This document shows positions 18,607 to 22,816 of a DNA stretch of 32,302 nucleotides, piece by piece. The notes under the pieces are model-generated. The model was not told the origin of the DNA, searched no databases, and worked only from the letters and a program-made list of their open reading frames with translations. The translations under genes and the position numbers were made by a program. This DNA is from Candidatus Methanoxibalbensis ujae (lineage in GTDB: Archaea; Halobacteriota; Syntropharchaeia; Alkanophagales; Methanospirareceae). Location: NCBI GenBank assembly GCA_026134085.1, contig JAOQIN010000020.1, positions 1-32,302 of the forward strand. Direction: 5' to 3'. Each line of letters starts with the position of its first letter. Within the stretch, counting starts at the first letter, position 1.

Positions 18607-18689
18607 TTTAGGAGATTTAGGTGATTGAGCCCGGTAGATGCGATGAGTGAATTCCGCACTTGACGCCGTGGAGAGCGGGAAGAAATTCA

Positions 18690-19200
18690 AACTATCTCAT
18701 ATTTACGAGAGCCGAGAGCGTTCTCAATGGCTTTATATGCTTGACATTTTCCGGCTGAATGCCGAGAAGAGAACATGCGAAGCAGTCAAGTGCCACGACA
18801 TCATAACTTGCGATGATCATCCCGACACAGAACACTTCGCCACTGAAAGGACCGCCTCTCACACATATCGCATTACAGTCAAATCCGGCGCCCTGTTCAA
18901 CTTGAATATGTGATCATGCAACCCGGTGACATGAAAGCGAACCCTCTCAACATCGGGAATACAGCCTTTCATGTTCTTCATACCGGGACTCACCCTCGCC
19001 ATACGATGCTCTCTGGCACATTTATTGTAATCGCATTCAGGCACATCCCTGAATATGATACCTTTCCTGTGCAGAAATGCGAGAATGCATTCCAGAACAT
19101 CGGGATGCGTTGTCACACCCCCTCCAACTTTAGCAGTTGCGATGTTTGGCCTCACGATTATGTCAGCATTTTTGCTCAAATTAAAATATGTGACCCTGTG
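18690..19200 (-). pseudogene. DUF362-family protein pseudogene
   Basis: Fragments IIVRPN..GVTTHPDVL, KNMKGCIP..FH..GLH..PDL.VM and, in another frame, GPFSGEVFCVGMIIASYDVVALDCFACSLLGIQPENVKHI; frameshifted and internally deleted. Confidence 0.75.
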
Positions 19201-19370
19201 GCATCGGCGATGGGAGCGGCGATGGGAGGTTCCTCAGCCGCCTCATGACCTGACGCCATTGGATGTCCCATCTCCACCCAACAGAAGAGTGAGCTCACAC
19301 CGTCCACACCGTCTTTCTGCGACGGGTCGTCCGGCGATAAAACCAGCTCTCTCAGCCTTGCAGGTTGCAT

Positions 19371-19463
19371 TTCTTAAGACCTCATTTAAGCTTAAAAGGT
19401 AAAACACCTGCTGAAGCTTGCGGAATTGATTTGAATATAGAATTTTCATTCCACCAACAATAA
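19371..19463 (+). pseudogene. Inverted C-terminal fragment of the IS6 transposase
   Basis: Plus strand reads FLRPHLSLKGKTPAEACGIDLNIEFSFHQQ*, the continuation of ...IYYNFL that ends on the minus strand at 19476. Confidence 0.8.
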
Positions 19464-19475
19464 GTTAACAGAAAC

Positions 19476-20170
19476 TAAGAAATTATAGTAAATAAACCAG
19501 CCATCCAACCAGATCTTAGCTGTTTCCTCACTTTTCAAACCTCTTAAAGTTTTAATCCTTTAAAGTTCCATGTAATCTTTTAACAACATTATTTGTTTCT
19601 CTTGCTTTAATTCCAGCTCTTCTCACGAATTCAACTCTATGCTCTTTATACCTGCTATAGAAAACTTTCTTGAAACCTTTTTCATAAGCCCATAAACCAT
19701 CTACAACTACTCTTTTTGGTCTTTCAACCGATCTTTCTTTCGCTTGTTTAAACAACTTTATTACTTCCTCTATTGTTCTTTCCCCAGATAAATGAGTAGC
19801 AATCAAAAATTTAGTATCAGCATCGATTATTTCCCAGAACCATTTATATTCTCCATCGCACTTTATCATCGTCTCATCAACATGGAATTTCCCACTTAGT
19901 TCAACTTTCAGATTATCAACCAGATTGTTACTTGGCTAACCTTAACTCCAAATATCTTCGCTATTTGTCTTTGAACTTTTCTAACTGACAAACCTTCAAA
20001 ATACAAATCCAAAGCGGTGACTATGACTTTATCTTTTGTTCTCATTTTAACAAAAGTTTCATTATCAACAAACTTATGCTTACAATCTTTACAGAAGTAG
20101 CACCGCTTTCCTTTGCTTTTTCCGTATTTGATTACGTTTTCTGAGCCACAGTATTTCCTTATTTTATATC
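19476..20170 (-). pseudogene. IS6-family DDE transposase pseudogene with N-terminal zinc ribbon
   Basis: KYCGSENVIKYG..YFCKDCKHKF, ALDLYFEGLSVRKV, FHVDETMIK, IDADTKFLIA, VVDGLWAY, NNVVKRLHG (expected catalytic Glu is Lys), KTLRGLKS..WFIYYNFL. Breaks near 19920 and 19552; start degraded. Confidence 0.9.
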
Positions 20171-20276
20171 ACCTGCATACCTTCTACGATATATTTAATA
20201 CAAGTATTTAAAGTTTTCGGTTTTATTGCTTCTGAGAATTACCAAAGTATCGACTTTATACTATAGGTGATGAAGA

Positions 20277-20645
20277 ATGAAAAGGGTATTGGTTAGCATT
20301 CCAGATGGAGCTTGGAAAATAATTGAGAAAGAGCTATTAGAGCTGCTAAAAATAAGCAATGCCTACCCTATTTATAGTGCATTACTTATGATTCTTTGTT
20401 TCGGCTGGATTTTTATAGTAGGTGTCCCGGTGGTAATTGTTATGACAATTATGGGCTATACTCCTTATCAATTTGACCATGCTGGTATTCTTTATATAGT
20501 TTGCTGTATCTTTGCATAGATCTCAATTCCTGTAATAGTGAAGTATTCAAAAGGGATGCATTTTGCAAAAAGGCTGTTATACATTTATATCATCGCGCAA
20601 TTGATAATGGGAGTGGCTATTGCAATATACCCTCCATTTCATTAA
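20277..20645 (+). pseudogene. Chimeric remnant: RHH/CopG-like N-terminus fused to a membrane-protein fragment, with in-frame TAG at 20517
   Basis: MKRVLVSIPDGAWKIIEKEL fits the RHH beta-strand/helix A pattern. A hydrophobic frame continues past the TAG (ISIPVIVKYSKG...IAIYPPFH) to TAA 20643-20645. Confidence 0.55.
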
Positions 20646-20659
20646 GGAGATGAACCATA

Positions 20660-21076
20660 ATGAAAATTATGAGGAATGAGATGGGAATAATAACAGACGT
20701 CAAATACGGAATGCTGTTTGGATTTATAGGCTTTGCTTTAACTCTTATTAGCTGGTATTTTGCAACAGGCGCGCTTGACCCAAGATTTCCCGCTGTGATA
20801 GGAGCGGGACTTTTTGGTGGAGGATTTTTAGGCTCATTAATGAGAAGGTTACATAGGGAAGGGGAGGAAAGAAAGGCGAATTTTATTTTTCTTGCTGTCA
20901 TTTTGATTGCAACCATTCTTTTAATTGCCGATTGTATATCTGACATCCTAATAGGAAACTGGAAAAGCACCCTAACCAATTGGAAAATATTGAGGTTTAT
21001 TTCTATATTTGCTTCTGTATACTTAATATGTTACATGATTTTGCGAATAAAGAAGTCAAAAGATGTAAAAACATGA
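20660..21076 (+). CDS. Hypothetical membrane protein (about four TM), island cargo
   Basis: 138-aa hydrophobic ORF with AGGAGA upstream; no recognisable family. Confidence 0.7.
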   Translation: MKIMRNEMGIITDVKYGMLFGFIGFALTLISWYFATGALDPRFPAVIGAGLFGGGFLGSLMRRLHREGEERKANFIFLAVILIATILLIADCISDILIGNWKSTLTNWKILRFISIFASVYLICYMILRIKKSKDVKT

Positions 21077-21118
21077 ACCGCTCGACTCTTCGCAACTTCG
21101 TGCCTTGTCTCGCTCCGC

Positions 21119-21184
21119 TCTTAACAGCGGATAAAAGGGAAATCAGAGCTCAAATTGCCTACGGCACTTCGTTTAACGTTGTCC
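21119..21184 (+). other. attC-like site 1 (right arm partly deleted)
   Basis: TAACAGCGGATAAA (21122-21135), inner hairpin TGCC-TAC-GGCA, terminal GTT at 21178; lies just downstream of an ORF. Confidence 0.5.
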
Positions 21185-21248
21185 GAAATTCACTCCGCCC
21201 CGCTTGAAAAAGAAAATTATTTAAAAGAAAAGGAGGTAATAAATTACG

Positions 21249-21905
21249 ATGAAGACCAAAAATTGGACTCCAAGGTTCATAGCTTTATCCATCGTTTGTT
21301 TCTTGGTTGGTGTAGGCATTGGTTTGCTTGGCTATCATTATTTTCTCAAACCGCAATTAGCAGTTTATGAAGGTCTTACCCAAGGCAACACTTCAACCAA
21401 CTGGCAAATTACGAAAATAGAACCAACCAAGGAAATGGTTGAAAAGATCGTGTTTTACGAAAATGGCAAACAAGAAATTATAGACCTAAAATCTGAAGAT
21501 GGAAAAGGGATAGCAAGTTTGCTTACTCGCAAACTTCATGAATTAAATTTACAAGCAAGATGTGTTTTTAGCGAAGAAGATATTGAGAAAATAAAGCAAA
21601 AAGACAGAGTTGTGGAGTTAATTTTCAAAAAACCCGTGGATATCACAATTTCACAATGGGTTGAGCCAGAAGAAAGATACCATATTCCGACGGATGAGAA
21701 GGGATACAGAATTTTGGAGAATGTTGAAACTGCCATATTTATTTTGGAAGATAATCAAGAAAGAGGATCAGAAGCACATATTTTAGTCGGTCATGGAGTT
21801 GAAGGAAGAATAGGTTATAGTTGCTGGGCAATAAATATCAAAAAAGAAGGAAAACCAGAATTGGATAAAAGTTGGATTGATGGAATAAATAGACTGATGA
21901 AATAA
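21249..21905 (+). CDS. Hypothetical secreted/membrane-anchored protein, island cargo
   Basis: 218 aa; basic N-terminus plus one hydrophobic helix, then a soluble domain; own TATA-like TTATTTAAA and GGAGGT SD upstream. Confidence 0.8.
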   Translation: MKTKNWTPRFIALSIVCFLVGVGIGLLGYHYFLKPQLAVYEGLTQGNTSTNWQITKIEPTKEMVEKIVFYENGKQEIIDLKSEDGKGIASLLTRKLHELNLQARCVFSEEDIEKIKQKDRVVELIFKKPVDITISQWVEPEERYHIPTDEKGYRILENVETAIFILEDNQERGSEAHILVGHGVEGRIGYSCWAINIKKEGKPELDKSWIDGINRLMK

Positions 21906-21988
21906 ACAGGCACTTCATTATTCAAAAGATGCTCGAGGGTAAACTCTTCGGAAAGCCTCGCTTTCCTAGTCCTCGTTTCACTCGGAGA

Positions 21989-22062
21989 ATATAACAGCGG
22001 ATAAACGGTTCACCTTCGGCTCGCCCAAACCCACTTCGTGGGCTTATTCGCAATTGTTTATA
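21989..22062 (+). other. attC-like site 2
   Basis: ATATAAC-A-GCGGATAA ... TTATTCGC-AATT-GTTTATA imperfect palindrome with inner CCCAC-TTC-GTGGG hairpin; same 14-mer as site 1 at 21992-22005. Confidence 0.55.
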
Positions 22063-22117
22063 CCAACAATAAGTTAACAGAACCAAAAACATCAAAAAAG
22101 AAAAAAGGGAAGTGCAG

Positions 22118-22816
22118 TCAGATGCCTGACACCAGATCCAGCAGTGCGTTTTTAGGATTTTCCGCTTTCACGACGCCTGAAGCGAGCAGAACTCCATCAG
22201 CGCCGAGTTCAACAGCAGCACGCACATCTTCTCCGCTTGTGATTCCTGCGCCACAGAGCACCACACAGTCTTCATGCACTTCTTTAACCGCCTTCACAGT
22301 GTCTGACACGATAGCAGGGTCAACTTTTGAGACCGCTCTTCCAGTTCCTATGAGCTCAGGAGGCTCAACAGCAACGGAGTAAGGCCTGAGCGCAGAAACC
22401 GCACGACTCACTCGCACATTGTTCGTGCATACGATTGTCAGCATACCGATTTCAGCAGCTCTGCTCACAATAAACTCTATGTCCGCAAGCTTCATGCGAT
22501 GTTCGGAGTGATTCACAAGAGTCCCCACAGCGCCAGACGCCTTCACAGCCTCAAGTGTCACGAATCCCGTGTGACTTCCCGGAAATACAGCATCAACATG
22601 CTGCGCGAAACATGGAATGCTCACGGCGGATGCCACCTGCGCGAGAAACACCTGCTGCGGACATATCGCGATGCTCACTCCCTTTTCTGATGCGACCTCT
22701 TCACACACCCTTGCAAGCGCCATTCCCCGCTCTCCAATGGATTCCTCATACGCTTTCACATTGATCACAATAACAGGCGTCTCAATCCTCTCCATATCCT
22801 CAACATCTCCTGCCAC
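22118..22816 (-). CDS. tpiA: Triosephosphate isomerase (archaeal type)
   Basis: INVKAY, AQHVD, GSHTG, VNHSEHR, AVEPPELIGTG, LCGAGI, GVLLASGVVKA. Confidence 0.96.
   Translation of the reverse strand: MAGDVEDMERIETPVIVINVKAYEESIGERGMALARVCEEVASEKGVSIAICPQQVFLAQVASAVSIPCFAQHVDAVFPGSHTGFVTLEAVKASGAVGTLVNHSEHRMKLADIEFIVSRAAEIGMLTIVCTNNVRVSRAVSALRPYSVAVEPPELIGTGRAVSKVDPAIVSDTVKAVKEVHEDCVVLCGAGITSGEDVRAAVELGADGVLLASGVVKAENPKNALLDLVSGI

Follow-up and report, generated by a model that had tools for sequence, protein, structure and literature searches.

The window analysed here is a stretch of 32,302 nt from Candidatus Methanoxibalbensis ujae (contig JAOQIN010000020.1 of assembly GCA_026134085.1), and at 19369..22084 it carries an island of ~2.7 kb which is a decayed copy of an archaeal transposon. 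The island is probably best explained, from its sequence and that of its relatives, as a rearranged transposon with an IS6-type transposase and gene cassettes, the fuller copies of which would be mobile integrons served by a XerA-like tyrosine recombinase; that the family is a cassette-carrying transposon is close to certain. The copy in the window is a dead relic whose worth lies in pointing to its relatives, and it is the family that constitutes the finding. The initial annotation of the window had proposed an archaeal insertion sequence (IS) with a cassette array, which the relatives bear out; its term “transporter IS” was right in kind but too modest, because fuller copies carry a recombinase of their own and an attI-like site.

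An exact 20-base query taken from the terminus recovered 119 stretches from metagenomes and 59 from genome representatives, several on contigs of 26–139 kb. The titles of the genome records name Bathyarchaeota, Archaeoglobales, Thermococci, Thermoplasmata, Methanobacteriaceae, Methanosarcinales, Aenigmatarchaeota, Micrarchaeota, Iainarchaeum, Baldrarchaeota, and others; three records are labelled bacterial. The fetched loci contain 206 ends, 151 after removal of duplicates, and 147 of these have at most three mismatches: in 56 the R′ box of an attC site is joined to the inner edge of the terminal repeat (R′-fused ends), 55 lie on the transposase side, 8 are of an abrB type, and 28 are of other kinds. 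Nineteen inverted pairs, among which L066 and L197 are probably one element, enclose 0.24–4.9 kb. An 8-bp target duplication, with 7 or 8 of 8 bases agreeing, flanks 11 of the 19 pairs; 15 have one R′-fused end and none has two, which places the attC site inside the unit that transposes. The initial annotation had suggested that the IS end either targets attC-like sites or is built onto them; the second stands and the first does not, since attC is found inward of the repeat and target duplications beyond it.

The order in fuller copies is right terminal repeat (IRR), IS6-type transposase gene (tnp), two small genes, recombinase gene (int), attI-like site, cassettes, and left terminal repeat (IRL). 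int, tnp, and an array occur together in L077, L078, L179, and L196, the fullest order being that of L179 (IRR, tnp, small gene, second small gene, int, array). L034, a complete element, has the backbone of the island and overlapping cargo, but stands at a different site and has a 7/8 duplication; together with L033 it shares backbone or cargo with the sister-strain contig L085 at 77–91% identity, again at other insertion sites. Neither int nor attI was found in the lineage of L033, L034, and L085. Among the cargo of relatives are a DNA methylase, a DNA glycosylase, and a helicase. Two further groups stand beside these elements. At L053, L067, L080, L081/L090, L091, L117, and L135 an abrB/MazE-type gene adjoins the left end, with more cargo of a non-cassette kind behind it; L090 is complete and has a perfect 8-bp duplication. 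The elements at L093:912-1151, L057, L072, L050, L043, and L194 measure 0.24–1.6 kb, lack an intact transposase, hold one attC site or one to two cassettes, and are likely to be non-autonomous derivatives.

The repeat of the left end is joined, always at one base, to 31 distinct attC sequences. The bases that follow GTT are ATA in 26 of these 31 sites, whereas their own left boxes predict ATA in only 9; thus, the downstream half is fixed in the element while the upstream part is exchanged at G^TT. This fixed R′ half-site (G^TTATA) overlaps the inner edge of the IRL and may go back to the original attI, as its downstream half, or to a cassette, as a stub. Copies show the same attI-like site with different cassettes behind it, and the same IRL with different cassettes in front. 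Cassette starts complement the left box (R″) of their own attC, a mark of cassettes that are circular units, in 10 of 28 cases (4.3 in shuffled pairings; p = 0.004), and in a longer alignment 8 of 28 score above the 95th percentile for non-cognate pairs. The bottom strands of the terminal attC sites fold with a median z of −1.85 (below −1.5 in 20 of 31); their arms pair almost from AAC onward, with a bulge of 4–6 nt before GTT, a geometry that looks non-canonical. At L083:920-989, L095:1619-1685, and L155:9927, attC matches are oriented opposite to the array or adjoin the right end, which suggests inversions or insertion of cassettes at secondary sites.

A tyrosine recombinase gene, or what is left of it, lies between transposase and array in L030, where it is intact, and in L077, L078, L179, L196, L152, L038, and L103, where it is broken. 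The intact product (P0067, 269 amino acids) scores 214.9 bits with the archaeal XerA model NF040815, just under the cut-off of 220, and 192.7 bits with the integron integrase model TIGR02249 (cut-off 265); when compared with IntI1 and IntI2 it is without both IntI insertions. Its best match in the structural database is archaeal XerA (PDB 4a8e, 5hxy), with which it is collinear and free of any insertion; a single-sequence structure model of P0067 reached a mean pLDDT of 55.7 and was not used. Unlike XerA, the recombinase is patchy in its distribution and tied to an attI-like site and arrays. It is 72–88% identical across phyla and its close relatives are numerous in archaea: they occur in 29 of 251 genomes of the phylum of G079, in none of 301 genomes of the class of G082 (at E 1e-60), in none of 31 genomes of the phylum of G080 (at 1e-70), and not in the host genome (at 1e-40). 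Viral contigs yielded no close relative; one of them matches the R′-IRL junction, and scans found no features there.

Upstream of int, ~85 bases are conserved up to exactly GTT, beyond which the copies diverge into the starts of different cassettes; by its sequence pattern this stretch is an attI-like site with its putative crossover at G^TT. The same arrangement recurs in another phylum: of 30 loci there that belong to the recombinase clade, 22 have an attI-like GTT 74–133 bp upstream of the gene, as judged by a pattern written after the sequences had been viewed and used with no control; four of the remaining eight loci have too little sequence and four do not match. Only 3 of the 30 loci have a repeat-like end within 400 bases downstream; L247 has the two small genes and an end, and L272 has 8 attC-like sites over 14 kb. 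As transposon ends are so few there, most of these platforms look sedentary, which suggests that one was captured by the transposon. In a tree, the transposon-borne enzyme falls among attI-adjacent archaeal recombinases; as the clade is weakly supported (89/47, 86/91) and the tree rooted at its midpoint, no order of events relative to IntI is drawn. The contigs of L251, L254, and L255 end at the attI-like GTT, or one base past it, as they would if members of the population differ in their first cassette. L265 and L266 represent a further recombinase clade, 43% identical to P0067, of which L265 has its own upstream attI-like GTT.

Mobile integrons are known to reside on transposons, class 1 in Tn402 and class 2 in Tn7. 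The family resembles them in that a recombinase gene diverges from an attI or attI-like site, in its array of cassettes joined at G^TT, in the DDE-moved platform, and in the sedentary donor pool; it differs in being archaeal with a single IS6-type transposase, in a recombinase without both IntI insertions, and in an array that ends on a half-site overlapping the terminal repeat. Since the recombinase does not have the IntI insertions, the family is not classed as an integron, despite its probably mobile-integron-like way of working. Other mobile elements are also found in fixed register with the site of a tyrosine recombinase: IS1111 elements and group IIC-attC introns target attC, and the IS1202 family inserts beside dif sites. 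Those, however, insert into or beside the site, while here the site travels inside the element.

With the IS6 family (PMC7986276, PMC6807381) the elements share, as far as the available text describes it, the DDE type of transposase, ends that start with GG and have G at position 7, and 8-bp duplications; they differ by a zinc-finger transposase of ~284 amino acids, 22-bp ends, lengths of 0.24–4.9 kb, variable cassettes, and a recombinase gene. In the broad ISfinder sense they fit IS6 in three respects: the transposase P0002 of a relative passes the model NF033587 (transpos_IS6) with 153 bits at a cut-off of 125, the terminal inverted repeats of the 19 paired relatives start with GG, and the duplication of 8 bp is present. 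They fall outside the strict IS6/IS26 family, which has a short bacterial-type transposase without zinc finger and 14-bp repeats (here 284 amino acids, a zinc domain, and a 22-bp repeat) and from which, in the accessible part of Harmer and Hall 2019 (PMC6807381), archaeal and long forms are excluded. The corresponding part of Varani et al. (PMC7986276) names one passenger-carrying IS6 member, ISDsp3, with one hypothetical gene. Arrays of open reading frames (ORFs) separated by attC sites were described in archaeal metagenome-assembled genomes by Ghaly et al. 2022 (PMC9668308), mostly as clusters of attC sites lacking integron integrases (CALINs), that is, without IntI; in the available text the six integrases reported carry the IntI domain, unlike the enzyme here, and its main text uses “insertion sequence” not once and “transpos” once. 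The part of Badel et al. (PMC8371274) available does not mention cassettes, and a literature search that covered few subscription journals found no paper describing this combination of transposon and cassettes.

How such an element might have come about and work can be outlined from sequence comparison. An ancestral transposon would have captured a chromosomal, integron-like (sedentary) platform; recombination at G^TT would bring new cassettes in at attI, and excision would change which attC is left joined to the IRL. The XerA-like enzyme without IntI insertion would load and remove the cassettes, probably on folded single strands, while the DDE transposase would move the platform as a whole. 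The lineage of the window may then have lost int and attI and moved on with frozen cargo, before its right end was inverted into tnp by intramolecular transposition; decay would have followed. We infer, in this outline, the activity of the recombinase, its single-stranded substrates, the capture of the platform, and transposition by the copy-in route.

Several observations weigh against this explanation. No copy was found with intact tnp, intact int, and both ends, and genes are broken in most copies; the host labels come from metagenome bins; the hidden Markov model (HMM) for attC and the attI patterns were built from these same sequences; and the match of cassette start and end fails in 18 of 28 cassettes. 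The window itself has neither int nor attI, its two attC sites are both damaged, and the start of its last cassette does not match that cassette's own end. None of the 56 R′-fused ends shows an empty attI-IRL junction, so that the fixed half-site may derive from a cassette stub instead of from attI's downstream half. Finally, the insertion missing from the recombinase is reported, in the available portions of two papers, as essential for integron function (PMC8138268, PMC7790495).

One alternative, which we consider unlikely, is that a canonical IntI acting in trans moves the cassettes, the XerA-like gene taking no part in this or serving some other purpose. IntIs that carry the extra domain are indeed found in archaea, six being given in the accessible text of PMC9668308, which also reports that archaeal attC sites were recombined by IntI1; and Escudero et al. 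(PMC7790495), in the part available, tie single-strand recombination to the I2 helix, described as an innovation for it. But the Xer-like gene is divergent from the crossover and ~90 bp from it in the 22 of 30 loci, which is the geometry of intI and attI, and the host, with 39 attC-like matches in a genome that is 89% complete, has a single tyrosine recombinase match, a Xer-type remnant.

It is improbable, too, that capture was passive, an IS6-type element having taken up pieces of a chromosomal array by means of its transposase, its left end cutting in beside attC R′ boxes, with no site-specific recombination inside the element. The host genome has many attC sites outside any IS; most copies have a broken int or none, the window having none, the empty junction is wanting among the 56 R′-fused ends, and 8 ends have non-cassette cargo by the left end, with 28 unclassified. 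Yet attC lies inside the repeat and not on the target side, 31 different attC sites share one junction base and a constant downstream half, and duplication-bounded elements with int remnants and the attI-like site differ in their first cassettes (L072, L074, L078, L050). That two unrelated events met at the locus (a simple IS and a second insertion, or attL and attR of an integrated circle, next to local chromosomal cassettes) is suggested by the direct repeats and by the missing original right flank and target duplication, but it can hardly be right, as the left copy carries family IRR inner sequence and the transposase C-terminus (on which ground attL/attR was rejected), L034 is complete at another site with its 7/8 duplication and, with L085, largely refutes the idea, and cargo and attC are wanting near tpiA in 19 relatives.

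The preferred explanation, a transposon-borne cassette platform with a XerA-like recombinase, matters because archaeal cassette arrays are known mostly as integrase-less clusters for which no vehicle has been described. A transposon that occurs in bins from many archaeal phyla is a candidate vehicle, and its recombinase of 269 amino acids a candidate enzyme. Integron integrases are thought to have gained single-strand recombination via the I2 helix, and a natural enzyme without I2 at an attI-like site bears on that idea. Chances seem evenly balanced that these are archaeal mobile integrons in the full sense, in which an IS6-type transposon with a half-site at its left end ferries arrays between phyla and a Xer-type enzyme shuffles folded attC sites without an I2 helix. 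If so, they would be a living example of the state before IntI, and many “integrase-less” archaeal attC clusters would be arrays with an integrase that current tools do not recognise. Given the methylase, glycosylase, and helicase among the cargo, genes for defence and repair could travel by this route between uncultured archaea of sediments.

The copy in the window is AT-rich, as had been noted, with a GC content of 33–38% between 19501 and 22000 and of 46–50% in the flanking bins. The two 21-bp identical termini described in the initial annotation are present (19453-19473 and 22062-22082), and a 23-mer of the terminus has two matches only in the 1.99-Mb host genome, even with four mismatches. 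They are direct repeats, not inverted ones, and therefore not, as had been supposed, a pair of ends enclosing the element; the left copy is the IRR reversed. In L085, which is 89–99.6% identical to the window (gaps counted) and has 1576 more bases of cargo as well as many small segments deleted in the window, the left copy is likewise followed by the inner sequence of the family's right end and then by the transposase C-terminus on the opposite strand; the 8-bp duplication ATTTCTTA stands at both junctions (19369-19376 and 19476-19483), and an alignment to the uninverted L079 confirms the flip. It follows that the right end was flipped into the transposase gene. The inverted piece begins at 19369, exactly the start that had been assigned to the island: C-terminal codons of the transposase, starting with ATTTCTTA and identified by translation and by alignment to L085 and L079, lie outside the repeat at 19369..19442 (plus strand). 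The IRR follows at 19453..19475 (minus strand), now facing as a left end does and reading GT, whereas family ends start GG; 101 bp of its inner sequence are deleted. The second copy of the duplication (19476..19483, minus strand), which shows as an 8-bp overlap in the L079 alignment, forms the joint with the transposase gene. The IRL, 22 bp starting with GG, is at 22063..22084 (minus strand), 33 bp from the stop codon of tpiA; that the copy at 22062 is a true left end and not an unrelated insertion is seen in the complete L034, which has it with the same cargo. The flip presumably arose by intramolecular transposition, the original right flank being lost afterwards; inversion with an 8-bp duplication is compatible with cointegrate (copy-in) transposition, though no proof of it. 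Neither that flank nor the original target duplication is recoverable in the window. Among contigs from other studies, X4 and X7 share the inversion and X2 the deletions.

Within the island, the IS6 DDE transposase pseudogene recognised earlier (19476..20170, minus strand, the upper coordinate being approximate) has an N-terminal zinc-binding motif and matches PF13610 with 36.3 bits (cut-off 27); it has frameshifting deletions, and its third catalytic E is changed to K (VVKRLH instead of the VVERLH of intact relatives). The putative ribbon-helix-helix (RHH) remnant is the 5′ stub of a conserved gene of 50 amino acids (20277..20335, plus strand), which the 1576-bp deletion fuses to the next ORF; the RHH label is a lead only, as intact copies match no Pfam family while Atlas neighbours carry RHH_1 (score 0.90, on 12% and 43% of their members). 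The predicted small ORFs on one strand were found, three in number, with no Pfam family: the remnant of a 124-amino-acid membrane protein (20336..20643), its start deleted and with an internal stop but intact in L085, a hydrophobic ORF of 138 amino acids (20660..21076), and an ORF of 218 amino acids with one N-terminal hydrophobic segment (21249..21905), with homologues in L033 and L034; all are on the plus strand and the latter two are cassette cargo. The two AAC...GTT hairpins belong to the attC-type family, as proposed, but both are damaged, and shuffled sequences fold as well as they do (z 0.2 and −0.25). The first (21119..21185, plus strand, HMM 26.2 bits), its right arm partly deleted, has its crossover triplet GTT at 21178-21180, after which a cassette starts in the typical way; intact kin of this site lie on the host contigs C70, C23, and C12. 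The second (21989..22062, plus strand, HMM 45.4 bits) has an altered or shifted R′ box, GTTTATA at 22056-22062, which abuts the IRL, a junction common to the family. An Rfam scan of 19000-22500 gave two chance-level matches and nothing relevant, and the island was confirmed to hold no tyrosine recombinase.

An empty site was not recovered, the closest relative being of a different genus with other genes after tpiA, and the contigs of four runs contain no joint that skips the island; in 19 of 19 relatives examined, none of the same genus, there is no attC, cargo, or transposase within ~1.5 kb of tpiA, so that cargo at this locus without the IS was not seen. No second copy of the terminus or of the transposase was found in the host genome. 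Among 78 relatives of the host class the terminus is absent (at most two mismatches), and the transposase occurs in three, at 28–36% identity.

The host has its own attC sites, with 39 matches of at least 18 bits, 7 of them seeds of the model (the best match in the reversed genome has 16.3 bits). A pattern search of the genome found no attI-like site of this type. In the search for an integrase elsewhere in the host, the one tyrosine recombinase match was a decayed Xer-type remnant, on contig C7 with attC sites after it. There, at C7:15608-18750, the remnant follows a tRNA-like sequence and precedes a methyltransferase-like ORF and attC matches; this is a worn-out sedentary array of a second type. 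Relatives of the host class have this second Xer-like type intact, with arrays downstream (L204-L221, L278-L281), an N-terminal extension, and attC sites in the same orientation, five of them in L279. In view of these and of the remnant, cassettes could have been exchanged in the past between the transposon and arrays of the host.

Next to the island, 168 bp at 19201-19368 are 98% identical to C7:9324-9491 and are cut exactly at the left edge of the island; the last 27 bases recur near the ends of C8, C14, C24, and C65, and nearby palindromes recall what we take to be IS200/IS605 ends. This stretch appears to stand in for the 5′ end of a DUF362 gene, a pseudogene of which lies at 18625-19200 on the minus strand with many small deletions relative to L085.

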